Source: Marsupella aquatica | Taxonomy: Eukaryota > Plantae > Marchantiophyta | Direction: 5' to 3' | Length of the DNA stretch: 64,000 bases | Assembly: GCA_973895155.1 (NCBI GenBank) | Contig: OZ316892.1 | Coordinates: 26,373,233 to 26,437,232, forward strand | Shown: in pieces, positions 19,395 to 57,768 of the stretch | Position numbering within the stretch: the stretch's first letter is position 1 | Layout of the letters: each line of letters starts with the position of its first letter | Program-made: the position numbers and the translations under genes | Notes under the pieces: model-generated | What the model saw: the letters and a program-made list of their open reading frames with translations, nothing else | What the model was told of the DNA's origin: nothing | Databases searched by the model: none

Positions 19395-19715
19395 CCTTCC
19401 TCGCAGCTCGCGCCTCGCAGCTCGTGGCTCGCGGCCCGCAGCTCGCGGCTCGCAGCTCGTGGCTCACTCGCGGATGCTTCCCCTTCCTCGCACGACAGCT
19501 CGCAGCTCGCGGCTCACTCGTGGACGCTTCCCCTTCCTCGCACGGCAGCTCGCGGACCTCCTTAGGAGGGATTTATTTTAAAACCCCCCCATACTCCTCA
19601 CTCGCGGCAGCTCGCAGCAGCTCCCGCCCTCTGCAGGGCTCGCAGCTCGCGGCTCACTCGCGGACGCTTCCCCTTCCTCGCACGGCAGCTCGCGGCTCGC
19701 GCCTCGCAGCTCGCA
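19395..19715. repeat. GC-rich degenerate 7-bp (GC[A/G]GCTC) tandem array with a larger ~40-bp repeated unit
   Basis: Many GCAGCTC/GCGGCTC units. GCTCACTCG(C/T)GGA(C/T)GCTTCCCCTTCCTCGCACG occurs 3 times (~19462, ~19512, ~19652). Confidence 0.85.
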
Positions 19716-20058
19716 GAAGGATTTAATGGGGGTTTAATTAAACCCCCCATACTCCTCCAGTCCTGCCTGAGTGTTGCTTTAGAAGGGGTGTTACCAAAAA
19801 ATTAAAAATGCTTATTTCCCGGACTTCCTTACCTTCCCGGAAAGTCACAATTTTAAACCCCCCCAGGTTTTTGCCCCATAATTAACCCGGGTCTAGACAA
19901 AACTGTTGGGGTCTCCGACTATCCCGAGATGCTTTAAAAAACTTTACAGATTTAAAGAACATTAAAAAAAAACTTGCGTCTATGGGCTTATTTATTTACA
20001 GGTGTCTTGCTGGTGACACTAATGGTGATTTACCGTGGCGGGACCCCATCACAGATAC

Positions 20059-23000: not shown

Positions 23001-23455
23001 AGTTGTAAGGCTTTCTTTTCTTCGCTCAAATGCTCCCCCAAATTCTCTAGGTCAACCACAAGATCATTGAACTGATCGATATGATCTTGAATCTTGACTC
23101 CATCAGCCATTTTGAATTGCATGAGCTTCAGGCTTGCATACATTCGGTTTGACATCTCCTTCTTGTAGTACTTGTTGCGCAATGCTTGAAACAAGTCCGT
23201 CACCGTTTGTGTTGTTTTTTCCTCGAACTGCTTATTCACATTGTTTTTCAGGTACATGCCAACAATACTTACCGCTTGATCCTGGAGATCATGCCAATCA
23301 TCATCTTCCATCTCCTTGGGTTGAGATCTTAGTACCTTGCCTAGGCCCATCGCCCTAAGTGCATCCCTCACGTTACGTTCCCACATTGTATAGTCCATCC
23401 GACCATCAAATTTTTCCACCTCAAACCTTTGACATCCAATCCTAGTAGTCGCCAT
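20059..23455 (-). pseudogene. Copia gag-protease-integrase-RT polyprotein with stops and a frameshift
   Basis: Gag VEKFDG and degenerate zinc knuckle; protease WILDSACSYHM; GAG-pre-integrase LWHARLGH; integrase HSDVWGP, RSDSGEY, PEQNG; RT FKARLVAKG, LYVDDML. In-frame stops at 21629, 21131, 20948 and 20525; frameshift near 20165. Confidence 0.95.
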
Positions 23456-24612
23456 CGCTGGAATGCCAAATGTAGTGTGGAGTCACCTTCCGACAAGAAA
23501 TAAACGTCGAATGCTCAGATGTGGGGTGTGAAAATAAGGCCAAAAATGAAAGTTGGTGAATTTTGAAATTGATCACTCCTATGTGTAGCCCACAAGGTAA
23601 CGCTCCGAATTCTGAAAACGGTTTGTCAAATGGACTCTCGAGTGCCGAGAATTTTTACTCCGACCGGAGGGGGGTAAAAGATGAAATAATTACCCCTCGA
23701 GGGAATCTCTTATGTCAAAGATTCCACTAGTATACTTTTTCAGAATTGAACGCACCAATACTTGCCTAGCTTCCCCAAGTACGCCTCTCCAAAAGTTGAA
23801 GTTGATCCAATTTTATTTGCCGCTCGGAATCTTTGACTTTCGGTAAAAATTTAAGCCTCTGGAAAAGAATCTTTTCGGGAAATTCCGTCCGCCCTTGTAC
23901 AGCCCCTATGGGGACTTCACAGGGGGCACTTCCCCCTGCCCGAGCCCTGTCGAGCCCTTGAAAGGCCTCCTCGAACTTTTCGACCTCCTCGCGCGCCCGC
24001 GCAAGTCGTGACTACTCGCGGCAGAAAATACCCCTCGGCGGATTCACTCAAATTCCCGTCTCAATTTTTGACAAAATCCAATTCTGATTTCAGATTCAGA
24101 AACTAGACTTCGAGGGCATCAAGATCGATATAAAGAACTTGCAAAACGGTGGAGTAATGAGGGAGAAACAGTTCGGTGAAAGTGACTGATATTAAGTTAT
24201 CCACCATAGCCAAAATTTCGAGCTCAAAAAACGAGAATTGAAATTAAGATTGCTTCTCAACCGTTTGACGGAATTCAACGATGTTGATATCGAAACGTCT
24301 AGAAAGACAAGACGCTCAAGCGTATCTCAGTTTCAAGTCCCGATAGAACAATCAAAAAGACTGATCTGAGAAATTGACCTTATCTCTTGCCCGATAACGT
24401 AAATTGAAAACCGTCACTTACAATTGTTTCCATTTCTGACCTCAGGCCTTCATTGCTTCACTGAAATGAGCCCCTGGTTGTGTGCTCCACACTTGTGAGA
24501 AGATTGAGTCCGATCTGCTTTCAATAGCTCCGCTTCGAAGAGGAAATCATCCGCTGTTCACTTTGCTTGAAGCAAGTTCTATGGAGTTCCTAATCAATTG
24601 AAAAATACCTGA

Positions 24613-24624
24613 GCTCTGATACCA
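24613..24624 (-). other. Copia primer-binding site (tRNA-iMet)
   Basis: Minus-strand TGGTATCAGAGC, 2 nt after the 5' LTR. Confidence 0.95.
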
Positions 24625-24626
24625 AT

Positions 24627-24952
24627 TGTGGGGAGAAATCAGATCAGGAAAAACACTCCAAACATACACGTGCTCAATAGTTACGTGGTTCGTCTCAAGG
24701 TTGGCTACGTCCACGGGAAGACCAAGCTTTATTAACGGTTATGTGTCTACTCAAGCATCACCATAGCTCCCATCTCTTCAAGCTCTCATCTCTTGCTATA
24801 TCACTGTGTTCTCTCTTGAGAACTATCTTGTATGTTCTCACACCACATACAAGTTGAAGAGATAAGGACCAATCTCTTCAACTAGGGTTAACACTCTAAC
24901 CCTAGTTAACATACTAACCATAGTTCAACCCAAGACTGAGTTAACCTCTACA
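24627..24952 (-). repeat. Copia 5' LTR
   Basis: 326-bp TG..CA repeat matching 14835-15160; followed on the minus strand by the PBS. Confidence 0.95.
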
Positions 24953-26115
24953 AGGCAAAGGTTGGAAAGGTTCTGGCCCTTGCAGTCCCAACCTTTCAGA
25001 AACAAACCTCTTAAAAAGAACATTCAGATCAAGGAGTGTGCATGCACCACTAACGCAAGGACCTTTGCCAGAAAGCAAAACACAGACACTTCATTTTCAC
25101 ATGATTGTTAATTAACAATTGCATTCTAAACCTGTGTATAATGTCATTGTCGACAGAACAAAGTGAAATAATACTAGTGAGATTCAAACCTGGATTTGAG
25201 AGTAAAAGTGATCCAAGATAATATGGCCGTCATGACCAAATATACAAGAAAAATGTAATCAAGCAATAATACATACAGAGAGGCTTGGAGCGCTTGGTCA
25301 TGGACCTTGGTACTGGGAGGTGCTTTGGTTAGGGAGTTCTTCCATGTCCCCCGTTTTCACTCCCTAACTCAACCTTGCAAAGGTGTGCAGTGCATCAAAA
25401 GTGTTAGCAGTACACTCCCATTGCCTCACCCTCTTTGGAAATAATGGGGTACTGCAACCATAGGGTGTGAATGGAAAATGAGGCTTAGGGTATACTTATA
25501 GTATTTAAATAAACACTTTTTGCAAGTTATGGCTATGTAATTTTTAGAGCATTTATTTTATAAAGGCTTGGCACACCTTGCTTTGAGGAGGGAATTATGC
25601 AATGGTCAATCTAGGCATTTGTAACTCAAACGGAAAAGTTGAACCATATTAAGCAAAATGGCCTAAAATACTGGTATTTTGAGTCCTTATTTCTTTACAC
25701 ACTAAATAATCCATTATCTTAACTTCAGTGAATTTATTTTTTCTTGTTTCTTTCCAAAATTCACTCTCAAGATTTTAAGGATGTAGTAAAAGTCCTGTTT
25801 ATAGAGCATTGTTGGATATAGTGCCTCCAAAAATGAAAGCTTCAACTCAAGTTAGGAGAGGCTATTGTTTCCCATAATGCTCTGATAATAGGACCTTAAT
25901 ACACTTTAAGGCCTAGGAGATTTTTATTCTTACTATTTTAGTAAAACTAAAGAAGAATCTTCGATTCCTAACTAGGTGATCCAAACCTTAACTGGGCATT
26001 TATCTCCAAGAATGCCCCTGAAAATACAAAGAAAAAACCACGAAGAGCATTAAGTAAGTTAAAACATCTTGGGAAAATGTCTTCTCCAACTTGGGCTAAG
26101 CTTTGGTTTTTGGTA

Positions 26116-30896: not shown

Positions 30897-31665
30897 AATT
30901 CCCCCCCCTCCAAACTCCCCTCCAAGAGCAGGCAGGGTCGAAAGGCTTCCCGGGGATTGTAGTGTCTCTCGATCAGCTCGTTCTTGAGCAGCAGCACCAG
31001 TTATCACTGAATCTTAAAAGCTGAAGCGTCACTGGAGACTGAGATGTGAAGAACCCAGTACAAAATTGCAATGTTTGATGCAAATGAGAGAGCTGGGACA
31101 GCGATGGAGGAGCGATGGAGGACTGCTGCTGCTGCTGCAACGTCTGGGATTTGAGCTCCGCATTTCCCGGTGACTCGCAGAGGTTCTGGATTACGGTGGC
31201 TTTACAAGAACTTGGGTACGCGGTTCCGTTTTTTCTATGTGTGAGATGCAATCGTAGCCATTCATATGTGGGAACAGGCGACACTGCACTTTACATAAAT
31301 TTGGGGGGGACTTGGGGGCACAGTAAAACAAAACCATTACCTACCCGTCATATGTCGGTATGTCACTTTTTGGGGGTTGGGTAAGTGGATATCCAAATAT
31401 GACATATACCTTCCATACCACACTACTTATTTTCTTTAAATCAACTAGCCGGATTACCTCTTTACTTGATTACCTGGTTCCTTGAACCTAAAGACATATG
31501 AAGAAAAAAGTCTTGCACAATAATATTTCTATGCTATTTGGTTAATACTCATTTGAAGTGTTTTTTTTAGATTCATGATCACTTTTGTCTGGGGTTACTG
31601 TTTAGAGGCTTCACTCTAGATCCTAGGCCCTTAAGAATAGACTTAGTTGGTGCAAGTGCCCACCA

Positions 31666-31841
31666 TGTCGTGACATATAGTATCGTAGCCATAGTGTATC
31701 GAAAACATACAAGTCACCGGCAAGGCATATGTGCAAGCTGCTAGCAACCAACATGCATAGAAAAAATCCAATCACATTCACAAGTGCCAAGAAAAAGCAA
31801 ATGAAGTGGTATGTACGTAGTGGAGGTGTAAACCTCTGTAT
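31666..31841 (-). repeat. Repeat A, terminal copy (176 bp)
   Basis: Matches 32202-32377 with 2 substitutions; forms the ...CACGACA 3' end of the element. Confidence 0.95.
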
Positions 31842-32199
31842 ATAAAAGGCGTGATAGAAACAAGTGTACTGAAATCGAATCGAAAACCGGCGGGATGCCA
31901 AGATCGGCCGGGAGCATCTAACGAATCACTGTGTGAATCCCGTGTACGGAACCGACGAGCACTGTCTGAGCTCTGTCAACAGCGATTCAAGAAGAACTGA
32001 AAACCCACAAAGAAAGACATGCCCTAAGCCAGCAAAGTCCTGGCGTCACACTAACAAGCACATTTGCTTCAAGAACGGCCCAGACTTGCTACAAGAACAT
32101 GTCACTAACTCAGGTAGTACACTAGCCTTAACTACATACCTAGCGGGCAGGCGAGGGACATGCCGATATGCATAAGAGGCACTGTCCCTCGGCATGACA
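31842..32199 (-). repeat. Repeat B, internal copy (358 bp)
   Basis: Matches 41076-41428 with about 3 substitutions and one 5-bp indel. Confidence 0.95.
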
Positions 32200-32201
32200 G
32201 C

Positions 32202-32377
32202 TGTCGTGACATATAGTATCGTAGCCATAGTGTATCGAAAACATACAAGTCACCGGCAAGGTATATGTGCAAGCTGCTAGCAACCAACATGCATAGAAAA
32301 AGTCCAATCACATTCACAAGTGCCAAGAAAAAGCAAATGAAGTGGTATGTACGTAGTGGAGGTGTAAACCTCTGTAT
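32202..32377 (-). repeat. Repeat A, internal copy (176 bp)
   Basis: Directly follows the G11 tract on the minus strand; separated from B by the dinucleotide GC (32200-32201). Confidence 0.95.
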
Positions 32378-32388
32378 CCCCCCCCCCC
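32378..32388 (-). other. Polypurine tract (G11)
   Basis: C11 on +, about 30 nt after the pol stop codon and abutting repeat A. Confidence 0.75.
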
Positions 32389-32420
32389 AGACCACAGCCA
32401 AAAGGAGGGCTGAAGAAAAT

Positions 32421-35400
32421 TTAGGTAGCACGTGGAGCACAAGAAGGGCAAAACCATAACCCTTCTGGCACCTGGGTAAGTTCAGGCCGAAGGCAAAAAA
32501 GATGGTACCCTCCATTGCAATTGTCACACAGCAGCATCTGGTCAGCATCATCAATTCGCAAACACACCTTGCAAGGGTAGTCCACAGGTGGAATCCAAGT
32601 AGAAGTCACAATGGTGGGATCTAGGTTAGGCAGATGACAAGGGGCGCAATTCTTGGCATTGTCAGCAATTGTGCGCCCATCTGCCCCTTGTAACTCTAGC
32701 ACTCCAGACGGTCGAATAGCTTTAACCCTGAGAATAGTACGACTGGTAGAGGTGTCCAGGGTATCGTTAGCTTGCCGCTGCAAGTTTACAAAATCTCCCA
32801 CATCAAACTTCCTGACCTTGGGCTGAAAAGTGCCCCCTCGTGTGTGTGCATAACGCAGTGTGTCCCTGTGCTGTGCAATGGCCAAATTCTCCATGGCCAT
32901 GGGCATAACCCTCCTGAATAGGGCAGCCCTCTCAGAGATCACATCAGACCAAGTCACAGTTGAATCCAAGTCCACCACCTGAAGCATGTGAGCAGCAATA
33001 GCAGAAGGTGGAACTGGGTGACGACCAAACAACAAGAAGTAGGGAGAAAAGTTAGACAGTGATGCATGTCTGGACATCCTATACCCCATGGCAATGTAGG
33101 GTAAGGCCAGGTCCCAATCCTCCTTGTTTTTGGTGAGGCAGATCTTCCGGAGGCCCTTCTTGCATGTCTGAACCATGCGCTCTGCCAAGCCATCTGCCTG
33201 TGGGTGATCTCGTGATGTCCGGCGATGATCAATAAGGGCCTGATCAAGCAGCTCCTGGAACTCTCCTCTAAACTCTGAGCCCTGGTCAGTGAGACATTCT
33301 GCACAAGCTCCAAAGCGGCTGAGAACTTGTTGTAGGAATGCCTGGCTGGTGCTACGGGAGGTCTTATCCGGCAATGCCACAAGTTCTATCCACTTGGAGA
33401 AATGCTCTATCATGATCATGATGTAGAGATTACCCCGAGATGTGAGGGGTAATTCTCCAGCCAGATCACATGACCAACGATAAAACATGCCCTGAATAGG
33501 GAGTGGGTGAAGTGTGGGTTGCCGAGACGTGAAAGAAGTCCTTACCCTATCACACTGCTCACACCGAGCAATAACATCTTGAACCTGGCCATGCATGCCT
33601 CTCCAATGATAATGAGGGACCAAGAGGCTGTAAGTCCTCTTAACGCCAAAATGACCAAGCTCAGAATGTACCTTACGAATAAGGCCAACCCTCTCATGAA
33701 TGGGTGGAACCACCACTTCCCTATCTGGCAAGCAGCGCACGAGATGATCTCCCTTCCACAAGTAGCGCTTGGACCTTTGTTGAATTCGGTCTCTCTGGGT
33801 TGCAGTAACATGTATGGGGTACTCCCCATGCTGCAAAAATCTCAGAGTGTCGTTGTCCTCCCATATGTCCACCACAGGTTGGTCAACAATGTAGCATGGC
33901 AGCAAAGCAAGATAGGTAGATGCATGAAATGTAGGCAGGATGGAAACCTGGTCAAAATCCTGCCGTGCATCTGAGGGATCATCAGAGGCAATCAAAGGGC
34001 TGCGGGACATAGTGTCAGCATTTTGATGTGTCACACCAGGCCTATGAATTACCTCAAAATCATACTCCTGGAGTATGAGCGCCCAACGAGCAAGCTTGCC
34101 AGTAAGCTTGTCGTTGGTCATCAACCACTTCAAGGGCTGGTGGTCGGTGTAGAGAACAAACCTGGTCCCATAGAGGTAGGGCCTGTAATGTATGACAGCC
34201 CACACAACAGCAAGGCATTCACCCTCATAAGAAGAATAATGACTCTCTGCCTGATTGTTGCTCCTGGATGCATAGGCAATGACGTACTCCTTACCTTCCT
34301 CATCATGCTGGCCCAGAATGGCACCAATCCCAAGGGCACTCCAATCTGTGTGTAGCACAAAGACCTTGCTGAAATCAGGTCTTCTCAGCACCGGGTATTC
34401 TGAGAGCTTCTCCTTCAAAGTGGCAAATGCTGCCTCAGCATCTGTACTCCATGTCCAAGTCACATTCTTTTTCAACAAAACATACAATGGGTGTGCAATG
34501 GTACTGAAATCTTTGATGTAGATCCGGTAGTAATTGCACAACCCAATAAAACTCCTCAAAGTGTGAACATCGGTAGGAGTGGGCATTTCCAAGATGGATA
34601 CCACCTTGGCCCAGTGAGCCATGGTTCCATTTGGAAGAATGCGATGCCCAAGATATACAACTGATCTAACAGCAAATTCACACTTCTTGGGGTGTATCTT
34701 TAGGTTCACCTTCTTAAGCCTCATGAATAGCTCCTCAAGGTCAAGTAGATGTTGGTCAAATCCTTTGCTGTGGACCAACACATCATCAATGTAGCATTTC
34801 AGAAACTCAGCACCTTGAAGAACCTGGTCCATGACTCTTTGAAAGAATATGGGCGCATTCTTCAAGCCAAATGGCATCACCAACCACTCCCATAGTTGGT
34901 TACTACCATGGAAAGTTGTTTTCTTGCGGTCCTTTGCAAGCAGCAAAATCTGGTTAAAGCCTTGCCTTAGATCCACAAGACTGAAGATGTCTGAGTCTCC
35001 AATGCTGTCAAATAGCTCCTCTGGCCGTGGCATGGGGTACCTGTCCTGGGGTGTGACCAGGTTCAGTGGCCTGTAGTCCCCACATATGCGCTTCTCTGTC
35101 CACAATCCACTGGAATCCTTCTTTGCTGGCATCACTGTAGCTGCTGCAAAATCTGATGTAGAGGGCTGAATAAGACCAGCTTCATAGAGCTCTTGGCATC
35201 TCTCATCCACCAACTACCACTCATGCTTACTCAAACGGTGTCTCCGCCTGAAGATAGGTGTTTCATCAGCCAACTCAATGGAGAACTGCATAGTCTTGCA
35301 CTTACCCAAGTCCTTCATAGAGAAAGCAAACACATTCTCATGCTTGAGGAGCAAATTCAGCAGCTGGTCCTTCTGTCTTTTACTCAGGTGGTTGCCCATG

Positions 35401-35486
35401 ATGAATGTGTAGTTGGCAACACTAGGAATAGGACCTGATGTACTCGTGCTGGAAGAGCCAGAAGTGCCAGCCTCTCCACTGTCCAA
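32421..35486 (-). CDS. Gypsy-type RT, RNase H, DDE integrase and PHD finger (930-aa open stretch; one stop at 35214 upstream)
   Basis: RT: RICGDYRPLN, MPFGLKNAP, YIDDVL. RNase H: HTDWS, YEGECLAVVW, TDHQPL. Integrase: HHCC motif HSELGH...CEQC, core CDLAG / TDQGSEF / ERMV. C-terminal PHD: CKVC...LLCDNCNGGYHLFC...WFCPSC. Confidence 0.95.
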
Positions 35487-35714
35487 TTAGCTGCTAGCAT
35501 GCTGCTGATAAGGTGATGAGGCCTCTCCAAGGCCTGCTGTATCTGTTGCTCTGGTCTGATCCACACCATGAAACTCAGAAATAATGTCAGCCACATTACA
35601 AGGGACCTCCTCCCCCCCAACACTGGGACTGAAGTGGTGAGTGTTGGACAAAGGTAAGTGCACCTGGTCTGGATGCCATGTAGCAGCACCATGGAGTGGT
35701 AGAACTGGAACTCC

Positions 35715-37100
35715 TTATGCTGGAGGAATGGACATCTGAAAAAGGATGCAAGTGACCAGAAGCCAAGTGAGAGCATTAAGATCCATTACCCTGCCAAGTA
35801 AAGCATTCCTGGCCAGCCTGGTGGTTTTGGTGTGGCCCGTAGTACCGGGTTGGAAGCCCATAGCCCGTTCTCTCTCCTCGGGACTAGGTTCATCCCATGT
35901 ACTGGTAGAATGTCGATAAACCAGGCCAGGACCATCACCCTGAAAAGCATGTGCACCTGGAAATGATACAAATGTAGGCCAAGCAGCACGGGGCTCTCCA
36001 ATGGTATTGGCTGGATACCAAGGTGCTGGCTCTTGCCGGGTAACTGGTTGGCAAGAACTGTCAGGATCCAAAATCTGGTCCACTGTGAGGTTAGTGTCCC
36101 TGGATGTGTGGTGAAGAGCTAACTCCAGCAAGGAATGTGGTGCAAGGTTAGTCCAAAAGTTACGAAGACGATGTGCATAAGAGCCACAGTGCACTGCATC
36201 AATGAGAAGGGGTGGCCCCAAGTAGTGCTGGACCACACTGAAATCCTCTTTGACCTGTGGACGCTGGTCAAACTAAGATGGAGTATTCTCAATGATGTAA
36301 CCAACAGCAGGATAAAGGGATTGAGCCCAGGTGAGAATCTGAACCAATGCTGTGAAAAGGCCAGAACGAGAATCATGCAGTCCAGCACCGTGACCAGCAA
36401 CTGAAAACCCTTGGCATTCCCAACCAGCTATGATCAAATCAAGGGAGCCAAGAAGGGTTAAGTGCCGGTGCTGGACAAGCTGGATATCTGGAGGAAAGAA
36501 AGAAAATGCAGACTTCCATGCACTGTGTGGAAACTGCTGGGGAAATCGCTCTGAAAATTCCAGCAGACGGGATTCAGCCACTTGCCTTGCACCTGGATCA
36601 ATATCCACATAGATGTACAGCTTCACCACCATGCCAGACTGTAGGAGAGCTTCCAGGCCTGTAGAAATGCCACCAAAAAGCTCAAGCAATGTAAGGTCAT
36701 CTGAAGGAGGAGTCCATGTAACTGGTGCGCTCAAGATTGGGGCTATTGGTTGGCCATGGTGCTGCCCAAGATCCTCAAATTTGCGCAATGCAGCCACCAA
36801 AGGTCCATGGGCTGCTTGGAGCCGTTGTACCACCTCTAGTCGATGATCCACGTTGCTGGAAAGTGCTGCTATATGTGCAGCAGCATGTGCAGTAGCCACC
36901 TCATCATCATCCTCCTCAATCCAATCCTGCAATGGGTGGTTGACATAGGTAGTTGTGTGCACTGCTTTCAACACACAGTGGTGAGCCATAGGTGTATGGG
37001 CACCATGCAAATCAAGTGGAATGTAGCCCAAGTGTGAGCCATTCGTATGCCAATCAACTCTGTAGTATGCATGCTCATGCCAGTTGTCAATGGTAAAACC
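35715..37100 (-). pseudogene. C5 cytosine DNA methyltransferase domain (DNMT3-like, non-permuted) in the pol frame
   Basis: Motif I LELFGGISTG, II YVDID, IV IAGWECQGFS, VI IENT, VIII AHRLRNFWTNL, IX ERERAMGF, X RNALLGR. Same frame as RT. In-frame stops at 36273, 35715, 35487 and 35214. Confidence 0.9.
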
Positions 37101-38284
37101 TGTGGGAACAAAGCCTCCTGGCCAATGAGCACATCATACGTAGTGACATTGGTAACCAAACATCTGACTGGGAAATGCAATTCCTGATCTGTACCTCCAT
37201 TAAAAGTGAGAGTGAGTAAAGTGGAACTCTCACCCAGCACATCCTCCACAGTGCCACTAGCAGTCCGAATGTGCCACTTGGATTGCTGTAAATGATCAGT
37301 CAACAATCCCATCTTCTTGGCAAACTGAATGCCCAATATCACTGGTTGAGCACCTGTGTCTAGCATGACCACTTGAGGAGTGTGACCTTCCAACTTGACC
37401 ACTGAATTCCTATTGTCAACAATGGCAATGGTGGTGGAAACTGAAGTCCTATCACTAGGTACCACTCTCGGCAAATGATGAGGTACCTTGTGAAGGGAGT
37501 TAGTGTCCACGGTCTTTCCACTCAACAACATAGCCAGGAAAGATGGAGCAGCATGACCAGAATCAAGTGTAGCTCTGGTCACACAATCAGCAGCAATTGG
37601 TACTGGGGCAGCCAAACCAGTGGAAACATGTAAAGGAGAAGAAGAAGGTCCAGTATGTACATGAGATTGGACCTCCAAAATCGGTGTCACAGGGGCTGAT
37701 GAAGAATGCAGTGAACCCTCTAGCGCCCTGAGGACAGCTCTAGCATCCAGCTGTAAATCATGGCAACTGAAAAGTGGAGTTGTAAGAATCCTTTGTGCCA
37801 TACCGGAGGTGAAATGCTCAAGTAGCTCAGGAGAAACAACTCCCTGTGAAATGTCAGCAGCACCTGGTGGTGGAATGGATGTAGCTACAGCTCCCTCCCC
37901 CCTCGCCAACAAGGTGCGCTCTTCAGCAAGTGTGAGTGGCTGAAAAGATTGGGGCAAGACAGCCCAAGCTCCCCTGGCTCTAGTCATAGGACCGGCAGCA
38001 AGACCATCAGCCTGTACAATGCGGCGTGTGGGAGCAATACGGGAGGCAGAATGAATCTGAAAATTCTGCTGTAAGGCCAGGCTGGGGAGCAGAGGACAGC
38101 ACACACTCACCCATATGAGCATCAAATGGCAAGCCATAGAAAGAGCGGGGTAGAGGTGCTGAACTGTCAGTGGTGCCTGGGCTAGGAATGGGTTGCACAT
38201 GACCAGCCGGTTGAGAAGGACCAGCAGAGGCAGTTGACTTGCCTTTGATGTTGACAAGTTGGGCATGTAGGGACTCACCCTCAT
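36968..38284 (-). CDS. Aspartic protease region of the Gypsy-like element
   Basis: VMLDTGAQPVILG, IRTASG, YDVLIG. An apparent 1-bp deletion near 37103 disconnects it from the continuation GFTIDNWHEHAYYRVDW in the DNMT/pol frame. Confidence 0.85.
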   Translation of the reverse strand: MRVSPYMPNLSTSKASQLPLLVLLNRLVMCNPFLAQAPLTVQHLYPALSMACHLMLIWVSVCCPLLPSLALQQNFQIHSASRIAPTRRIVQADGLAAGPMTRARGAWAVLPQSFQPLTLAEERTLLARGEGAVATSIPPPGAADISQGVVSPELLEHFTSGMAQRILTTPLFSCHDLQLDARAVLRALEGSLHSSSAPVTPILEVQSHVHTGPSSSPLHVSTGLAAPVPIAADCVTRATLDSGHAAPSFLAMLLSGKTVDTNSLHKVPHHLPRVVPSDRTSVSTTIAIVDNRNSVVKLEGHTPQVVMLDTGAQPVILGIQFAKKMGLLTDHLQQSKWHIRTASGTVEDVLGESSTLLTLTFNGGTDQELHFPVRCLVTNVTTYDVLIGQEALFPQVLPLTTGMSMHTTELIGIRMAHTWATFHLICMVPIHLWLTTVC

Positions 38285-39752
38285 GAGTCAGAGACTGGAG
38301 TTGAGTGGCCTGTGTGTTGTGAGCCTCCTTCTGAGCTGGTGGCTTTTGTTGCTGCTTGGGCAATTTGTTGGCACTGGTTGCTTTGCCACTGGAAGGAGGA
38401 GCAACTGATGCAATAGGAGCCCTCCTAGCTGGTGGGGGAGTGGAAACAGGAGCAGAATGAGTGGCCTGTTGTCGTAGCTGCTTCCTCTCTGGGAATTTGG
38501 CAAAACAAACTGCCTCCAAGTGGCCCACTTTCCCGCAAAAATCACAAGATAGGTCCTTAGCAACAATATCACATTCATTAGCCTTGTGATTAGGATTGCC
38601 ACAGTAGTTGCAAGATGGCAGCATGAAAGCAGCATGTGCTGGTTTGGTCTTGGAAGCATACTGTGGCACACGGGAAGGGGTGGCCATTGTAGGAGCAGCA
38701 GCCTGGTACCTAGATCGCGGTGGACGCGCAATACTGGCCTCATAATGTGCATGGGCCAACTCAAGTTTCTCAGCAGTGTCGTAGACATTGAGCAATGTGT
38801 AGCTGTCTCCAAACTCTGAGAATACTTGCTGCAACACTTGTGAATGGAGAGCTGGTGTGCCCTCCAATGCACGAAGATAGCGATGAGCAGCTTCCAGGTC
38901 AGTGATGCTCTGGGTGTCCTCCTTCAGCTTAAGAAGCCGGCGATACATCATCTTCAAGGTTTCATCGTGCTGCCTCACAAAGGTCGCCAACTGCATGATT
39001 TTGTCAGCACTCTTGATTGGGAATTCCAATTCAAGAACCTGGAAAAACTCAGCCACTGGATCAGCAAAGGCAGGGGAATCAATGGTGGGAGAAATGCCTG
39101 ATGTAGCCTGTGCCAAGATAGTGGGAGTAATTGGTGTAGTGGTAGGAACTAGAGTAGGAGGGGAAGTGGCAGGAGCAGCAGCATGGGCTGCAATGGCATT
39201 CTGTAATGCCAATTGTGAGGCAGCCGCAATTGCACTGGCATAGGCAGGGTTAGGCAATTGTGTGACAGTAAGCAGCCGTTGAGAGTGCTGCTCATACACA
39301 TCCAAAGCCTCATGATGCACATACCTGGCTAGCTGCTTAAATGCAAAAGCATTTGTGAAATTGCTGCCATACTTCAACTCCAATTCGTAAACGACAGTGT
39401 AGAAAGTGGATTTGAACTCATGCAAAGAAACAGTGCCTGGCCGCCTGCTGAAGCGTTCAATGCGGCCAGATGAGTGGCTGGCGTCCATGCTGTATGTCGG
39501 TGAAGCAGGGACAACCACGGATGCAGAAGGGGTAAATGGCAATGAAGTGATAGCAGGCTTGGGAGTAGTGGTGAAGCGACCGCCAAATGGAGCAGAAGGA
39601 TTGCGTGGTGTGGGTGCTACTGCTGTCTGTGGACGTCGTCGAAATTGCCGAGACTCCAATGAAATTGGCACCAATGGTCGTGGATCACTCCGTAAATGGT
39701 ACCTGGGTGTCGGTGGTGATGTGCTGCTACCTCCTGGCTCGTCAACTAACAT
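38007..39752 (-). CDS. Gag-like protein with two CCHC zinc knuckles
   Basis: 581-aa ORF with CNYCGNPNHKANEC and CDFCGKVGHLEAVC (CX2CX4HX4C); lies upstream of the protease. Confidence 0.88.
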   Translation of the reverse strand: MLVDEPGGSSTSPPTPRYHLRSDPRPLVPISLESRQFRRRPQTAVAPTPRNPSAPFGGRFTTTPKPAITSLPFTPSASVVVPASPTYSMDASHSSGRIERFSRRPGTVSLHEFKSTFYTVVYELELKYGSNFTNAFAFKQLARYVHHEALDVYEQHSQRLLTVTQLPNPAYASAIAAASQLALQNAIAAHAAAPATSPPTLVPTTTPITPTILAQATSGISPTIDSPAFADPVAEFFQVLELEFPIKSADKIMQLATFVRQHDETLKMMYRRLLKLKEDTQSITDLEAAHRYLRALEGTPALHSQVLQQVFSEFGDSYTLLNVYDTAEKLELAHAHYEASIARPPRSRYQAAAPTMATPSRVPQYASKTKPAHAAFMLPSCNYCGNPNHKANECDIVAKDLSCDFCGKVGHLEAVCFAKFPERKQLRQQATHSAPVSTPPPARRAPIASVAPPSSGKATSANKLPKQQQKPPAQKEAHNTQATQLQSLTHEGESLHAQLVNIKGKSTASAGPSQPAGHVQPIPSPGTTDSSAPLPRSFYGLPFDAHMGECVLSSAPQPGLTAEFSDSFCLPYCSHTPHCTG

Positions 39753-41063
39753 GCTGCATGCTCACCTGGGTGCCAATGGGAAAGAAACTGACAAGAAAAA
39801 GAAATGGCAGCCCCAAGGCTAGGAAATAAATGGTGTGAGCAGAAATGTGTCGAATGTGCAAACACACAGAAAAACCGTTGGCAAAGAAAAGACCCTTCAA
39901 AACTCCAAGTGTACTGGTGTTGTGCTTGCGGGATTGACTGTCTGATGAACATGCCGGGCCCTCAGCTTTATGCAGATGACACGTGGCGGCAGCAAAGAAA
40001 TCCAGAAAAATGGGCCCTTAAAAACGTAAACCTGGGCCCCCCTTAAGTGTATACATCTCGGCCCGATGTGGAACCGGAAAAAGAAACGGCAAGGGAGGGA
40101 GCGATTAGGGCCCAAATTAAGCCACGGGCTCAACGCCCTATGCGGATCACGAAGCGAAGGGTGAGGCAAGGCGAAAAGTAAAGAAACGGCCCCCTTAATG
40201 ATGGCTCGAGCCCTGCATAGGGCTTTGCGCCACCTCCTGGCTCCTCATGTGCTCCCGAAGAGAAGGGAGCGACTAACTCCCCTTCCCCTGCTTTAATTGC
40301 TTATTAGGGCCTCGTGCCCTCTCCTGGCACTCTCGCTCCCCCTCCTCTCCTGCTTTAATGAATGCTTCTGTGCCTGGCAGAGTGGCAGAAGGACTCCAGG
40401 GAAAGGAGTCGAATGTAACCCCCCCACTTTAATCCTCCATAGGGCCTCGTGCCCTCTCTCTCTCAGCTCTCGCTTGTACTCGCTCCCTCTCCCCTATTAA
40501 GTGTTGGCAACCGGGGGAAAGGAAATAAAACGGCGAGGGGGAAAGAAAGAAAACGAGTCCTAATCGAGTGGAGGGCACGATGCCCTATGCGCGTACCGGC
40601 GAGCAAAAGGAAAAGAAAACGGTAAGGGAAGGCTGTCGCCCCCGATGTGTATACACATAGGGAGAAGGGCGCAGTACAAACACAGCCGCGAGGCGGCAAT
40701 AAACCTGGCGTGCGACCCTTTACGGGGCTCCGAGCAAGAGTAAAGGCATCGACCTGCCACCCGTGGCTTGTAGCCGGCCGGAAGGTAGCATGGCGCAGGG
40801 AGGCGCTGAAGCAGCAGTTGGCAGCGGCCGGAAATGGAAAACCTGAAATCGAAGCGCGAAGGAAAAAAGTGAGGGGGGGGGGGCCTGTTTGACTTAAGTG
40901 TATATACTTAAGTGTATACACAAAAGCCATAACTTCCACCCCATCGCTCAATGTTTTTCCATAGAAATTGCACCGGCATCAGCGGAAAAGCGTCAACTGT
41001 CTCGAGCAATTGAGAAGCACAGCGTCTCCGATCTTCTTCCCTTCACCGCTAACCCGGCGACAA

Positions 41064-41077
41064 AGTTCTTCTTGAAT
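41064..41077 (-). other. Putative self-priming primer-binding site
   Basis: Perfect 14-bp reverse complement of 41214-41227, at the inner edge of the 5' repeat B; no TGG tRNA-type PBS there. Confidence 0.75.
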
Positions 41078-41428
41078 AAAAGGCGTGATAGAAACAAGTG
41101 TACTGAAATCGAAAACCGGCGGGATGCCAAGATCGGCCGGGAGCATCTAACGAATGACTGTGTGAATCCCGTGTACGGAACCGGCGAGCACTGTCTGAGC
41201 TCTGTCAACAGCGATTCAAGAAGAACTGAAAACCCACAAAGAAAGACATGCCCTAAGCCAGCAAAGTCCTGGCGTCACACTAACAAGCACATTTGCTTCA
41301 AGAACGGCCCAGACTTGCTACAAGAACATGTCACTAACTCAGGTAGTACACTAGCCTTAACTACATACCTAGCGGGCAGGCGAGGGACATGCCGATATGC
41401 ATAAGAGGCACTGTCCCTCAGCATGACA
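41076..41428 (-). repeat. Repeat B, 5' terminal copy (353 bp)
   Basis: Begins TGTCATG on the minus strand; homology to the internal copy stops exactly where A would begin. Confidence 0.95.
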
Positions 41429-42664
41429 ACCATATGTTATCACATTTTTTATGTGTGATTACAGTAAAGTCTTTCTTTGCCCATGTGTGTATGCTTTTTT
41501 GTTAAGAACCTAGACCTCATCTTTAGAAGGTCTAAAAGAATGAGGCAAATGGCTGCTTGATTTCAGGGAGTTGCATTTATTGCTTCCAGACCTGACACAT
41601 TTTGGTAAGAAGGCCCCGGTCTAGACTTGCCCGACAAATAGAGCCTTCAGAGGCCGTCAAAAGGCAAGTCGGTACCCAGACCATCCCAGTCTCCAGATCC
41701 TGGTCTCGATGTCATCTTCCCAGCCTGGCCCGGCCATGACCTCCCAGCCCGAGTTCCTCTCTCTCTCCCCCTCCCCCGGGCCCCATCCCCTGGTCTTGCC
41801 CCCATTTTGACTCCCCCGGTCCCAGCCCCAGCCCCTTCCCCCGGTCCCCCCCTTTATGTATGGTACTCCCGGCCCAGGCCCGGCCCAGGCCCGGCCCACC
41901 CCCGCCTGACCCGGACCCGGACCTGGCCTCCCTCCCCTCACCCGGCCCGGCCCTGGACGGGGCAGGCCGGGTCCGGGGCCAGGTGAGGGGAGGGGCCGGG
42001 CCGGGTGCCAGGCAGGGCCAGGTCCGGGAGGGGAAAACAGGCAGGGTCCGTACGAGGCCGGGTCTTCGCCAGGACGAGTTCGAGCCGGGCCGGGGAATAA
42101 GTGCGGATATCCATCAAATAGAGGCTTTTTAGTTTGGCAAATGCAGAGTTTACATACCGGGCAACTCGGCAAGTTGCCCTCACTAAGGCCCCCTGGGCAT
42201 TGAATTATAGTAATAATGTTATCTTGATCGTGAGATAGATATAAAGGGGTCATTGTGCACCGTTTCCACGCCCAATACGTCCCTCTCTTGACATCCAATT
42301 ACCAGGCCAACTCACTGACTTCCCGTTGTGTCAAAGTGCCTGGCCATTTAGCATATGTTAGTCAACATTTCAACATCACTTACCATCAACAATCGTGTGC
42401 AACACACAAGCATCGGACACTCTAAAAATAATAATTTGCAATTAAAATCTGCTAGGCATGACCTACATCATAATTTCTCTGCAATAGAAAATTTTGATAT
42501 GTAGACCATGCTTGTGAGTATGGGTGCACATGGGAGTTTGGGCAAGGGTAACCCTTCATGTGCATATGCCACTGGTATTTGAGGTAGTTTACTTTCAAGA
42601 GCCAAACAAAGCAAAATCTTAATAACAAATTGAGATGAGAAGGTTCAGATGTAGGCTTCGAGAG

Positions 42665-42940
42665 TGAAGCCTAGATCAGTTGGCCAGGGGATTAGCCTGG
42701 AATAGAGAGGTCCCAGGTTCAATCCGCTCTCCACATCAAGGGTTGCGGAGGGTGAGGGTGATATGTGTGTGTGTGGGGCCGGGGGGGGGGGGGTAGCCGG
42801 CTTTGGTCTCTGGTCCAACTCTCTCTCCCTCCAGGTATGACCCCCCTTGTGGGCTTCCTTACAGAGGTGCATGCTCTAGAGTTGATTGTTTATCCTCTGA
42901 TGTCTGGCTGGGTCAACTTTTGATTTCAAAACACACAAAT
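42665..42940 (+). mobile_element. tRNA-derived SINE, copy 1
   Basis: Pol III box A-like TAGATCAGTTGG (~42672) and box B GGTTCAATCC (~42716). Body homologous to 57456-57768 (minus). A-rich end. Boundaries approximate. Confidence 0.75.
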
Positions 42941-44096: not shown

Positions 44097-45142
44097 GGCT
44101 AATGGGTCTGTGGCTAATCCAAGACCAAAAGTCCAGAAAACTCTAGCCAAATGTGGCTAAGACTATTCAGTGGTGGTGGGATTTGGCCAATTTATGGGCA
44201 TGGGAAGAGTGAAATTGAATTTGGGACCTATTGGTTCCAGACCCATCCCCTGGCCAGCTGACATCAGCCAGCTGGTTACTGTAGTACTACTACTGTTTTG
44301 AGTTGCTTCCCAGCACTCGGGTCTCTCCGTCACTCGCAGCTCACAGACATACACAAACTCCACAGTCCTCATTCGGCACCCAGAAAAGCAGAGAGTTGCT
44401 GGAGAACGATCACCAACCCGACCGCACATTTTGAGTGCAAGCCATTTGAGTTCAGTCGAGTTGAGTTGACTGAGCTCCACAGTCTTCAACTTGCTGATTG
44501 AGGAGGGGAAATTAGTGGAACGAGATTGAGTAAGTTGGTGAGAATGATGAAGGTTGTCAGTTTCTTCCTCTGATGGGAATGTGAGACTCGGATGAGAGTG
44601 ACGGAGGTTGTCAGGTTTCGTTGCATTGACCCTTCTGTGGGGTGGGCGAGGAGGACGGTGAGAACAAAGAGTGTGTTGATGCGGAAGGCCTGGCCCAACA
44701 ACAGCGTGGATTTGCACCAGATGGGTTGTGTTTGAGGCGATGGCGAAACTTTGAAACGCGCATTTGTCTTCGGTGCAGAGGGTGTCCTTGTTCGCTTCAT
44801 TTCGCAGAGTTTTTCTTCACTTGTGCAGGAATCAGCGGAGAGGGACGGACGGACGGATCGAAGAAACGTTGCCCTGGGAATGTGGGCTTGGAAGTGAATG
44901 GAGATCCTGCTGCAAGTTTACGATCTGGTTTACCCTACAGGTTGACAAGATGGGCGTCTTGCATTGAGCTGTTCCGAGTTTCTCATCAATGTGAAAAGAA
45001 AACAGGGCTTATGGAGCGTTTGAGGAGGATATTGGCGTTTGAGCAGATCGGAGGCTTGTAAAATATTGGTTTGTACAGGGATTTGAGGGATTTGGTCAGC
45101 TGAAGGGAACCCCACTTCTTCAACCTGCCTCCTGCCGATGAG

Positions 45143-46378
45143 ATGTCGTCTCTAGCCACTCTAATCAGCAGGGAGCTGGAGGGCTCGAGGTTGGAGGAGC
45201 AGCCCATGCTGCGCTTCGGTCAGGCTGGGCAGTCGAAGAAGGGAGAGGATTTCTATCTAGTCAAGACACGTTGTCAGAGGACTCCTACTGAAAACACTTC
45301 CTCGACCTTCAGCGTGTTTGCAATATTTGACGGCCACAATGGACGGGCGGCCGCTATATATTCGAAGGATAACGTTCTCAAGAATGTTCTCAGCGCAATA
45401 TCTCCTGGATTGAGTAGACAGGAGTGGTCAGCAGCGTTACCTCGAGCTTTGGTTGCTGGATTCGTGAAGACTGATAAAGAGTTTCAGAGTGAAGAGCAAT
45501 CGTCCGGGACAACCGTCACGTTTGTGGTTGTGGACGGATGGACTGTTACTGTGGCTTCCGTTGGGGATTCTCGTTGTATAATTGAATCTCAGGGCGTCAT
45601 TTCTTTGCTTACAGTGGATCACAGACTCGAGGTAAATGAGGAGGAGAGACATCGAATTAAATCGAGTGGCGGTGAGGTGGGTAGACTTAGTACTGTTGGG
45701 GGTGCTGAGATTGGCCCGCTGAGGTGTTGGCCTGGTGGGCTTTGCTTGTCACGATCTATTGGTGATTTGGACGTCGGGGAGTTCATTGTCCCAATACCAT
45801 TTGTCAAGCAGATCAAGCTACCATCTGCAGGAGGCAGGATTGTGATAGCATCTGATGGTGTTTGGGATGCTTTGAGTTCTGAGAAGGTGGCTAGAAGCTG
45901 TAGAGGGTTGTCTGCTGAGCTGGCAGCCAATCAGGTTGTGAAGGAATCATTGCGCTGTCGAGGATTGAGGGATGATACCACCTGTGTGGTGGTGGACATT
46001 CTTCCCCCTGTGAATGCAGTGAGTTTTGCAAAAAGGAAACCACAAAAAGGCTTTCTTGCATCAGTGCTCAGAACTCAATCTGGCAGGTTTTCTGGAAGAT
46101 CTGCAAACAGAATGATGGAAAGTGGCAAAGTGGAGGAAATTTTTGAAGAAGGTTCTGCTGCACTCTCTGAAAGGCTGGGACCTGGGAATTCGGTGCAGGG
46201 GCTGGAACAGTTAGTGTGCGCTGTTTGCCAGGCAGCCATCACACCAAGTGAAGGGATCTCAGTTCATGCTGGAACGTTTTTCTCCACTTGGGAGGGTCCT
46301 ATCTTGTGTGTAGACTGTAAGCGAAAGCAGGATGCCATGGAAGGTAAATCCGCAGTCTCGAGGATGAGTGGAGCGTAA
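45143..46378 (+). CDS. Protein phosphatase 2C (PPM family), 411 aa, single exon
   Basis: KKGEDF, AIFDGHNG, SGTT, VGDSR, TVDHR, LCLSRSIGD, IASDGVWD, GLRDDTT; C-terminal CAVCQ...CVDC pair. Confidence 0.96.
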   Translation: MSSLATLISRELEGSRLEEQPMLRFGQAGQSKKGEDFYLVKTRCQRTPTENTSSTFSVFAIFDGHNGRAAAIYSKDNVLKNVLSAISPGLSRQEWSAALPRALVAGFVKTDKEFQSEEQSSGTTVTFVVVDGWTVTVASVGDSRCIIESQGVISLLTVDHRLEVNEEERHRIKSSGGEVGRLSTVGGAEIGPLRCWPGGLCLSRSIGDLDVGEFIVPIPFVKQIKLPSAGGRIVIASDGVWDALSSEKVARSCRGLSAELAANQVVKESLRCRGLRDDTTCVVVDILPPVNAVSFAKRKPQKGFLASVLRTQSGRFSGRSANRMMESGKVEEIFEEGSAALSERLGPGNSVQGLEQLVCAVCQAAITPSEGISVHAGTFFSTWEGPILCVDCKRKQDAMEGKSAVSRMSGA

Positions 46379-48939: not shown

Positions 48940-50871
48940 TCAAACATTCGCGACCCGATGTAGCATATCCGCCTCTCTTAAGATCTCCGAGCTCAATTCG
49001 CACAGCTTCTTATACTCAAATTTGGTAAGAGACGGGGAATGCTTTACTCTCTCCCACACCTCACGCCCAATGGCCGAGAAGTCCTCTAGCGTGGGAGCAT
49101 CCTCTGGTGCGGGAGAGGGAGGCCGAGGCGCCAATAATTCGGCAGGGGAATTGGGAGGGCATCTAGTATCCACATTGAACTTCACTGCTTTCTTCCTGCC
49201 ACCGCTACCACAGCGCGCGACTCTCTCCGGGGCTCCTCCTGTACCATGAGCTTTACCTGTGCTGCCACAACGCTGAATTACTTTCTCCGAGGTTCCAGCA
49301 CTATGTGTTTTGCCCCTGCTGCCCCAACGCTGAAGTCTCTGAATTATCTCCGGGGCTCCAGCACCATGGGCTCTACCTATGCTGCCCCAACGCTGGAGTA
49401 TGTGAATTATCTCCGGCGCTCCCGCACCAGGAGCTTTGCCAATGCTGCCACAACGCTGAAATCTCTCCAAGGTTCCTCCACCGTAAGTTTTACCTCCGCT
49501 GCCACAACGCTGAAATCTCTCCAGGGCTCCTCCACCGTAAGTTTTACCTCCGCTGCCACAACGCTGTACTCTCTCCAGGGCTCCTCCACCATTAGCTTTA
49601 CCAACGCTGCCACACCGCTGAACTCTTTCCGGGGTTCCTGCACCATGAGCTTTAACTGAGCTGGATTTCCTCCTCTGTCTCCTCCTCGCCTTGGCCCTGG
49701 CTTGAATTGAATTGAGCACAGAAACCCATCGTTCATTGGTTCCTCGTTCATTGGTTCCCCGTTCGTCGTTGTCAGATACCCAAAAACTAAAATTGGAAGA
49801 AGTCTTATTGCTGTTGAACTTATTTATGGTCTTGTCTATGGCCTCCTCTATGTTCTGATTTTGCTGTACCCACAAGTTTTCAGCCTTCCTGGGCTTCTTA
49901 GGTTCCTCCCACTGACTCGTGGTGAACTTGTCCGTAGTCTCAGATGTGGCCTCCTCGTGTGTATTATGACGTACCCACAAGTTTTCAGTTTTGCTGGGGT
50001 TCTTAGGCTCCTCCCACTGACTGGTGGTAAACTTGTCGGTAATCTCAGCTACGACCTCTTCTTGTTGGTTCTGCTCTTCCCTCAGGTTCTCAATCTGTCT
50101 GGGCTTAGGCTCCTCCCACTTATTGTGTGTGAAAATGTTGAAGGTCTCAGTTATGCCCTCCTCAGCTGGAATTTGCTGCACCCACAAGTTTGCAGGCTCG
50201 CTGGGCTTCTTCGGCTCTTCCCACTCATCTGAGTCACCAGCACTAACACTCTTAGCCAAATCTTCATCCACATCTCCACCCTGCTCTCTTCGTGCTGCGG
50301 ACGAGTTGAACACATTGCGTCCTCCTTCTGTGTCGTGGTAGCCACTGCTGCTCGTACTCACCATCGAGATGTCGTTCTCTTCGAGAAATACAAAAGCATC
50401 TCGAGCTGCTGCTTTGGCAGCTGACTCGGCGTAAGACTTGGCCACTGCCTCCATGGCATGGACGTCGAATCCCTTCAGCAAAGGAGATGCGAGGTAGGAG
50501 GCAAAAGAGTAGTCCCCTGTGCATAATTGGTTCACATGATGGACTCTGTTCCTTGCATTCGCTCCTCCTAGGAACATGTCCAATGTGGTGACGCAGTTGG
50601 AGACCATCGCGGTGTTGTTATTATCCCTGGACCTGGACCTGGACCTGTTGCCTCGCTTGCAGAAGAGAGACCCCAGGGCACCCAAATCCCCCACATCAGC
50701 TGAAATCCGGGGAGGGGTAGGAAATTCGAAGCTGTAGCGACCGCTCGGATTATGACTCTCGCCCTGTGAGCTCACACATTCAGGCGTACAAAACCCTTCT
50801 TCGTCGTCGTCGGTAACGTATTGGTCATGGTGGTGGTGGTGACCATGACCAACAGACAAGCACAGCCCCAT
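48940..50871 (-). CDS. Unknown 643-aa protein with putative N-terminal lipid anchor and two internal repeat arrays
   Basis: Long ATG-initiated ORF starting MGLCLS followed by a His tract; 4 x WEEPK..NL repeats and 8 x (Q/A)R(C/W)GS repeats that keep the reading frame. Confidence 0.75.
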   Translation of the reverse strand: MGLCLSVGHGHHHHHDQYVTDDDEEGFCTPECVSSQGESHNPSGRYSFEFPTPPRISADVGDLGALGSLFCKRGNRSRSRSRDNNNTAMVSNCVTTLDMFLGGANARNRVHHVNQLCTGDYSFASYLASPLLKGFDVHAMEAVAKSYAESAAKAAARDAFVFLEENDISMVSTSSSGYHDTEGGRNVFNSSAARREQGGDVDEDLAKSVSAGDSDEWEEPKKPSEPANLWVQQIPAEEGITETFNIFTHNKWEEPKPRQIENLREEQNQQEEVVAEITDKFTTSQWEEPKNPSKTENLWVRHNTHEEATSETTDKFTTSQWEEPKKPRKAENLWVQQNQNIEEAIDKTINKFNSNKTSSNFSFWVSDNDERGTNERGTNERWVSVLNSIQARAKARRRQRRKSSSVKAHGAGTPERVQRCGSVGKANGGGALERVQRCGSGGKTYGGGALERFQRCGSGGKTYGGGTLERFQRCGSIGKAPGAGAPEIIHILQRWGSIGRAHGAGAPEIIQRLQRWGSRGKTHSAGTSEKVIQRCGSTGKAHGTGGAPERVARCGSGGRKKAVKFNVDTRCPPNSPAELLAPRPPSPAPEDAPTLEDFSAIGREVWERVKHSPSLTKFEYKKLCELSSEILREADMLHRVANV

Positions 50872-57455: not shown

Positions 57456-57768
57456 TTTTTGCCTTGGAACCAAAAGCTGACCCATCCAACAAAGTATATC
57501 TGTTCAACTCTGGAGCACACGCTTATGTAGGGTAGCCCACAAGGGGGGTCATATCCCAGACCAGGAGGGAGAGAGGGTTGGTCCAGAGCCCAAAGCAGAC
57601 CAGCCAGGGCTGAGGAGAAATCAGTACTCCCACCACTATACCCCACCACTACACCCCACCCACACAGTCACACACTCACCCTCCACAACCCTTGCATGTG
57701 GAGGGGGCTTTAACTTGGGACCTCTTGGTTCTAGGCTCATCCCCTGGCCAACTGACCACAGCCAGTTG
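57456..57768 (-). mobile_element. tRNA-derived SINE, copy 2, with A tail and long TSD
   Basis: Homologous to 42665-42940. A8 tail (T run 57453-57460). ~20-23-bp TSD GCACACAAAGGA(C/A)TTGACACTTT at 57433 and 57769. Confidence 0.85.

Follow-up and report, generated by a model that had tools for sequence, protein, structure and literature searches.

A Gypsy-type retrotransposon clade of the green lineage with split direct repeats, and a possible integration route through an internal palindrome

How does a retrotransposon with a DDE integrase come to carry its repeats in the split order of elements coding for a tyrosine recombinase? By the accepted view, long terminal repeat (LTR) elements and retroviruses insert linear DNA through its ends, circles being dead ends. 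The question is raised by an element of the liverwort Marsupella aquatica, which lies on the minus strand at positions 31,666 to 41,428 of a 64,000-nucleotide stretch of DNA, hereafter the window (assembly GCA_973895155.1, contig OZ316892.1, positions 26,373,233 to 26,437,232). On balance, we favour the reading that it represents a Ty3/Gypsy-type family, equipped with a DDE integrase, a DNA methyltransferase (DNMT) and a PHD finger and laid out as B-internal-A-GC-B-A, which integrates when the integrase cuts a CA^GC-TG palindrome in an end-joined circular DNA copy.

Self-BLAST together with base-level checks gave the minus-strand order TSD-B-gag-PR-DNMT-RT-RH-INT-PHD-G11-A-GC-B-A-TSD, in which TSD is the target-site duplication, A and B are two repeats, PR, RT, RH and INT denote protease, reverse transcriptase, RNase H and integrase, and G11 is a polypurine tract (PPT). 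The two A copies (176 bp each) differ at 2 sites (98.9% identity), and the B copies (358 versus 353 bp) are 3 substitutions and one 5-bp indel apart. The outer ends are TG...CA and are flanked by the 4-bp TSD TGGT. Hence the 5′ end consists of B alone and the 3′ end of A-GC-B-A, with 712 bp from the PPT to the right end. Two complete terminal LTRs with a PPT just inside the 3′ one are not present; what is present is the split direct repeat X-ORF-Y-X-Y of PAT, Ngaro and VIPER. An earlier note, made from the letters of the window, had claimed this layout, the repeat lengths, an identity of about 99%, the TG/CA ends and the 4-bp TSD, all of which hold at base level.

The coding region is that of a Gypsy element. 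Pfam domains appear in the order zinc knuckle (a weak match, E 0.0055), aspartic protease, C5 DNA methylase, RT, RNase H, integrase (H2C2 and core) and PHD. The integrase triad, with its residues counted by hand in the translation, has the DD35E spacing, and the top solved-structure match is Ty3 Gag-Pol (E 7e-89, residues 5-736). The PR-RT-RH-INT order with a DDE integrase, as well as TG...CA ends with a TSD in the 4-6 bp range, are thus those of Ty3/Gypsy. No tyrosine recombinase was found among the 21 window open reading frames (ORFs) of at least 100 aa or the 5 long ORFs of relatives, in agreement with the earlier remark that only a DDE integrase is visible. In five of these window ORFs and in the long ORFs of relatives, no chromodomain match follows the integrase; a PHD finger stands in its place. 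The copy itself is broken: 4 stop codons interrupt the best frame across 35210-37133, and the frame changes near 37100.

The closest named protein belongs to the liverwort Calypogeia fissa (82-85%), and the Klebsormidium DNMT-Pol protein P0049 aligns at 39% across ~1,400 aa. In an RT-RH tree of 35 rows, built without REXdb or DIRS references and with five other Gypsy proteins falling outside, the proteins of the window, of stray contigs and of Calypogeia, Klebsormidium, Closterium and Tetraselmis form one clade of 30 (100/99). The element therefore combines a C5 methyltransferase within a Gypsy Pol with membership in the clade of the Klebsormidium proteins. It is a member of a real, old and abundant clade, and it has neither the two LTRs of a Gypsy element nor the recombinase of PAT/Ngaro. 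One clade member (L152:3061-9516) carries its C5 methyltransferase between RNase H and integrase rather than between protease and RT, so the domain was moved or gained twice. Outside the clade, a Gypsy-type polyprotein (P0118) has a PHD finger and PF05869, a Dam-type methyltransferase family.

Is the layout a property of the family, or does it stem from a single rearrangement or a faulty assembly in an ordinary two-LTR Gypsy element? The locus itself leaves room for the latter, being without a long-read span and having two single-copy outer-junction contigs that overlap the element by 25 and 27 bases, below the 31-base rule. Relatives were taken from a metagenome scan as the best 80 of 642 related stretches (63-80% protein identity). 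A callable 3′ end is present in 59 of the 80, which represent 48 distinct insertions, the other 21 being too short or partial; the number of samples behind these loci is small, and the loci do not represent independent lineages. The 3′ end reads A-NN-B-A (Form I) in 22 insertions, three of them damaged (L020, L049 and L066), and A alone (Form II) in 26. Both ends are visible in 20 insertions, 10 of each form, and in all 20 the 5′ end is B alone, as it is in three further 5′ ends (L015, L043 and L080). A TSD of 4 bp within one mismatch flanks 17 of these 20, exactly in 10 (the end of L020 having been corrected by hand). Thus the family-wide layout with different 4-bp TSDs that the earlier note expected of independent insertions was found, and its predicted one-LTR product, B...A, proved common as the 26 Form II copies. 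The ordinary copies with two complete B-A LTRs, which it had named as refuting, did not turn up, since none of the 20 two-ended insertions has A upstream. Nor did the alternative permutation B-A-GC-B...A, hereafter the mirror form (0/20 two-ended insertions versus 10 of Form I, p = 0.002), which could account for at most about a quarter of the A-only copies.

Further material comes from the host's own family and from more distant relatives. Contigs of the former carry many unlike flanks exactly where A ends (7, 13 and 13 contigs, for runs X1, X2 and X3) and, for two of the runs, exactly where B starts (5 and 11 contigs), and short contigs of X1 and X2 bridge the B/A joint and show the A-GC-B joint; given their shortness, Form I and the mirror form are indistinguishable in these contigs. 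In X3 the element contigs are ~1,200-1,700 deep versus ~20 for the flanks, a rough figure and not a copy number. A genome-contig search gave 22 loci, of which 16 weak bacterial transposase-like matches were set aside and 6 retrotransposon contigs were examined. One of the latter, L148, at 54% protein identity, reads G7-A-GC-B-A-flank. The layout thus recurs in L148 and in 22 distinct insertions of other samples, A is absent upstream in every two-ended insertion, and the arrangement was mentioned earlier for Klebsormidium. A one-off or misassembly is thereby excluded at the level of the family, and for the window locus, too, we give this explanation almost no credence.

Several observations accompany the survey. 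The clade contigs L147-L152 sit in bacterial metagenome-assembled genomes and are likely binned-in algal or plant DNA. Two of them, L149 and the circular contig L147, read A-GC-B-PBS (PBS, primer-binding site) and were taken as collapsed assemblies, neither as circles nor as evidence of the mirror form. Viral contigs gave no match to a single-protein query and 66 loci to an alignment query, the best four of which, compared with themselves, contained no palindrome and no split repeat. Among damaged copies, L056:3674-4061 has 85 bp duplicated in tandem where its 5′ B starts, and L063:8630-9051 has a short inverted piece within the inner A and a truncated B. In all four runs, the 5′ untranslated region of the window element (39724-41127) has much lower coverage than the remainder of the element and likely varies among copies.

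Where, then, would reverse transcription begin and end? A G-run directly precedes A in the 22 Form I relatives and in L148, and the start of A is precise in 21 of the 22. The stretch following the 5′ B has no TGG at its start and forms the reverse complement of a 12-mer located at B position 202, a match that arose in 1/50,000 shuffles, and the pairing extends to a 14-bp helix within the minimum-energy fold. Pairing is kept with differing sequence in four sub-lineages (14, 15, 13 and 12 bp): relative to the window, L013/L024 have two compensating pair changes and a helix of 15 bp, and the helices of L147 and L149 measure 13 and 12 bp. In the four runs, the primer site is conserved in loose contig ends and the sequence beyond it is divergent. 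From these features, Tf1-like self-priming is predicted at the site after the 5′ B. The RNA is placed as starting in mid-B, since the self-primer lies inside B, and we infer A-GC-B as the reverse-transcribed repeat. The earlier proposal that PPT and PBS define A-GC-B is thus borne out, except that the PBS, which lacks the TGG start, is a predicted self-primer site and not one for a tRNA. Self-priming is described for Tf1 and Tj1 (PMC4600332); for Tcn1 and TAR it has been predicted in plants (PMC6317226).

The integrated ends are found elsewhere. The start of B (TG) and the end of A (CA) face each other within the A-GC-B repeat as GACA-GC-TGTC, which is the 10-bp palindrome GACAGCTGTC. This palindrome occurs once in the window, and the same 10-mer stands at the A/B joint of L035, L147, L148 and L149; its carriers fall into three deep branches of a single clade, and the sharing reaches as far as 48% protein identity. 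It is not present in L150-L152, of which L150 and L151 stop ~400-500 bases past pol. Two further matches (L173 and L174) were rejected as unrelated DNA. Foamy-virus integrase cuts a palindromic LTR-LTR joint after CA on both strands, leaving 5′-AT overhangs (PMC1180852), and tetramers of HIV-1 integrase cut their palindromic LTR-LTR joint likewise (PMC1905944), so the chemistry of palindrome cleavage has precedent. The integrase of this family is predicted to cut the palindrome inside the repeat.

The B/A joint at the right end of Form I is of another kind. It is blunt in 9 of the 22 Form I copies and in the window, and non-blunt in 13, with the shared AT lost, one base added or lost, a substituted G, or deletions of up to ~150 bp. 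Classed by eye, irregular joints make up 13/22 at B/A versus 1/22 at G/A and 0/10 at B/PBS (Fisher p 0.0002 and 0.0016), and blunt and non-blunt joints are both present in both A subtypes. The outer A is 0.095 away from the inner A of the same element, closer than to those of other elements (0.125; permutation p < 1e-4 for 19 pairs, L066 being without a usable inner A), and the sets of outer and inner A show no fixed difference; in 8 of 10 elements, the nearest match of the 5′ B is the 3′ B of that same element. With the outer A following the inner one of its element, and the 5′ B following its 3′ counterpart, both repeats appear to be renewed in each cycle. Judged by its sequence, the B/A joint looks as though it is made anew each time, as by end-joining; non-homologous joining of two-LTR circles leaves imprecise joints (PMC7197481).

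These observations bear on templating of the kind proposed for PAT and Ngaro, in which the RNA would span both split repeats, the repeats would anneal during reverse transcription, the B/A joint would be copied from the parent, and the integrase, or a recombinase in trans, would act on the restored A-GC-B joint. Such templating would suit the topology, which is the X-ORF-Y-X-Y of PAT, Ngaro and VIPER (PMC4157794, PMC6681497), as well as the blunt joints of the nine relatives and the window, and it explains the single orientation without any bias. It accords poorly with the G-run and self-primer, which mark ordinary LTR-type boundaries at the start of A and the end of B, and with the mixture of joint types within both A subtypes, which is hard to get from a copied joint. 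No tyrosine recombinase was found in the 21 ORFs, and the TG/CA ends with a 4-bp TSD suit a DDE enzyme; recombinase elements are not known to leave a TSD. We judge templating improbable.

The integrase reading can be set out as a cycle. First, the RNA would start midway through the 5′ B and end in the 3′ B, and its first ~12 nt would fold onto the site after B and prime the minus strand, as in Tf1. Second, ordinary reverse transcription would give a linear [A-GC-B]-internal-[A-GC-B], whose free ends have no attachment site. Third, these ends would be joined by host end-joining, or by an end-to-end jump of the RT on the shared AT, to form the B/A joint. Fourth, the integrase would cut both strands of the palindrome after CA, producing two ready ends with 5′-GC overhangs, which would be inserted with a 4-bp stagger and the GC lost. 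Fifth, use of the upstream site alone would give Form I. The dead B-internal-A form would come from one-repeat circles, or by loss of B between two A copies. On the tree, Form II copies are interspersed with those of Form I (16 changes versus a shuffled mean of 16) and is not older than Form I in a branch-length test (p 0.59, with L007 and L042 left out as long branches). Given this scatter and age, an origin of Form II at insertion, through a one-repeat circle or annealing of A copies, fits more than slow later loss. Form I is likely the only form able to copy itself again. The presence of ten Form I insertions and no mirror form implies that the cut is biased to the upstream site; such a bias could be selected, because an RNA with B at its two ends is peculiar to Form I.

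Is a free circle needed? The same product would result if the cut came first and the joining later: the upstream palindrome of the linear DNA would be cut and the new ends inserted, and the host would repair the break between the free B and A ends, giving Form I by end-joining or B-internal-A by annealing of the two A copies. This course accounts equally for the imprecise B/A joint and for two forms of equal age, and a cycle that depends on circles may be inefficient, two-LTR circles being rare among the products of Arabidopsis elements (PMC7197481). It demands a chromosome break at each insertion, however, and likewise leaves the missing mirror form unexplained, and we consider it unlikely. 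The earlier note had read the element as a 2-LTR circle opened inside the LTR. What stands of that reading is the layout, the A-GC-B boundaries, the B...A product and the end-joined look of the joint; its two equal cut sites do not agree with the lack of the mirror form, and a free circle is not singled out as the intermediate, since joining after strand transfer yields an identical product.

A number of points weigh against the end-joined circle cut by the integrase. A symmetric 2-LTR circle has two identical sites, so the mirror form is expected as often as Form I, and the choice of the upstream site is unexplained by the circle model. In 22 older relatives the 2-nt spacer of the palindrome is GC in 5, AC in 12 and something else in 4, one being unread; our own reading of the sequences is that methyl-C decay of CAGCTG may have produced these changes. 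Contigs of the host family list no small B/A indel, only one 58-bp deletion across the joint in one contig. Nearest-neighbour comparison pairs the outer A with its own inner A in just 7/21 (a set including two mis-cut parts, L020 and L049), and the likeness of the two A copies could stem from gene conversion. Three of the 20 two-ended insertions (L010, L047 and L057) are without a TSD within one mismatch. The form tree is star-like, which makes the scatter of Form II weak evidence, and the start and end of transcription are predictions only.

How does the family relate to known systems? KnitGypsy-Dnmt3 of Klebsormidium nitens (de Mendoza et al. 2018, PMC5890265) shares the Gypsy Pol with a C5 methyltransferase and DIRS-like repeats; its arrangement is known here from the Fig. 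4c legend, according to which the repeats are arranged as in DIRS and the domains are Gypsy. Section 9 of that paper, and its supplements as covered by term, do not give the termini, TSD, primer, palindrome, second form or mechanism. The paper treats the element as an event of the K. nitens lineage, whereas the clade found here also holds liverwort, Closterium and Tetraselmis proteins. In the literature searched, the name KnitGypsy was not found beyond that paper, nor was any replication mechanism for this layout, most subscription papers and Repbase Reports lying outside the coverage. As to prior description, then, a question the earlier note had raised, the family and layout have been briefly noted before, in that legend, and the replication cycle is apparently undescribed.

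PAT, TOC1, Ngaro and VIPER (PMC4157794, PMC6681497) have the same A1-ORFs-B1-A2-B2 topology, and PAT also has a methyltransferase, of the adenine type, whereas that of the window element is of the cytosine type. These elements encode a tyrosine recombinase; the window element has a DDE integrase, protease, PPT, TG/CA ends and a 4-bp TSD. Tf1, Tj1 and Tcn1 (PMC4600332, PMC6317226) likewise have a primer site complementary to the 5′ repeat rather than to a tRNA, but they possess two full LTRs and a chromodomain in place of split repeats and a PHD finger. In the cleavage of retroviral 2-LTR circles (PMC1180852, PMC1905944), a palindromic joint is likewise cut after CA on both strands with a 2-nt 5′ overhang; there the palindrome is made by the joining of DNA ends and belongs to a side route, whereas here it is encoded within the repeat, the B/A joint lies elsewhere, and the route appears obligatory. 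Troyka (Kojima 2025, PMC12440569), named in the earlier note among groups for comparison, shares a Gypsy-like domain order as an LTR element; it is ruled out by its CG...CG ends, 3-bp TSDs, two ordinary LTRs and animal-only occurrence. The words 'PHD' and 'methyltransferase' have 0 occurrences in the main text of the REXdb paper (PMC6317226).

Table 1. Features of the element, listed from its 5′ to its 3′ end, with window coordinates.
Feature	Position	Strand	Basis or remark
TSD, 5′ copy, TGGT	41429..41432	-	base-level check
Repeat B, 5′ copy, 353 bp; starts TG = left integration end	41076..41428	-	predicted transcription start and R region inside
Predicted 12-nt self-primer inside 5′ B	41216..41227	-	pairs with site after B, 14-bp helix
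Primer-binding site, predicted self-priming type, not tRNA 3′ end	41064..41075	-	pairing; conservation in contigs
gag-like ORF with CCHC zinc knuckle	38007..39761	-	weak Pfam match
Aspartic protease ORF, terminated by frame change near 37100	36968..38287	-	Pfam
C5 DNA methyltransferase region, broken by stop codons	35715..37133	-	PF00145; tblastn with Klebsormidium P0049, P0064
RT-RNase H-integrase (H2C2, D582/D642/E677, DD35E)-PHD finger; RT start lost to upstream stop	32421..35213	-	
Polypurine tract G11, immediately before A	32378..32388	-	
Repeat A, inner copy (A1), 176 bp	32202..32377	-	
Palindrome GACAGCTGTC: A end + GC spacer + B start; predicted integrase cut site, uncut in this inner repeat	32196..32205		
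GC spacer between inner A and 3′ B	32200-32201		
Repeat B, 3′ copy, 358 bp, with self-primer copy at 31987-31998	31842..32199	-	
B/A joint, meeting of two primer-defined DNA ends, blunt in this copy	31841..31842		
Repeat A, outer copy (A2), 176 bp; ends CA = right integration end	31666..31841	-	
TSD, 3′ copy, TGGT	31662..31665	-	

The rest of the window holds several other features. A Copia-type element on the minus strand (14835-24953) has ordinary 327-bp LTRs (98.8%), flanks one mismatch off a 5-bp TSD, and a primer site that, from its motif, is presumably of the tRNA-Met type; ORFs in its interior at 17148-19726, including 18083-18832 without a Pfam match, are perhaps a nested insertion. 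Two inverted copies (68%) of a short repeat, tRNA-derived by eye and possibly a SINE, lie at 42676-42929 and 57464-57755, with a further piece at 44215-44275. A long open frame at 45104-46375 has a PP2C domain, a 661-aa minus-strand frame at 48943-50925 runs over 54-63 bp and 105-bp tandem repeats without a Pfam match, and an NB-ARC frame (63432-63998) stands at the window end.

What would these findings mean? Until its DNA copy is made, the element works as LTR elements do, and afterwards as a circle-integrating element does; the family uncouples priming boundaries from integration ends. With the two kept apart, it offers a natural setting for tests of whether a DDE integrase cuts an internal palindrome, on a substrate of 20-30 bp. 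Split direct repeats are not diagnostic of tyrosine-recombinase elements, and tools that rely on paired LTRs would likely mis-bound Form I and miss the B...A form, which is without any terminal repeat. The broader proposal, to which we give even chances, is that an ancient green-lineage clade of DDE-integrase elements, reaching from chlorophytes to bryophytes, moved its attachment sites into a palindrome within the repeat and transposes only via end-joined circles opened at one chosen site. Circles as integration precursors have been debated since early avian-virus reports (PMC1180852). If the cycle is true, the family would be a natural, obligatory version of the abandoned retroviral model with the 2-LTR circle as precursor, and its cycle would be a third one for LTR elements, beside integration by linear ends and recombinase-mediated circle insertion.

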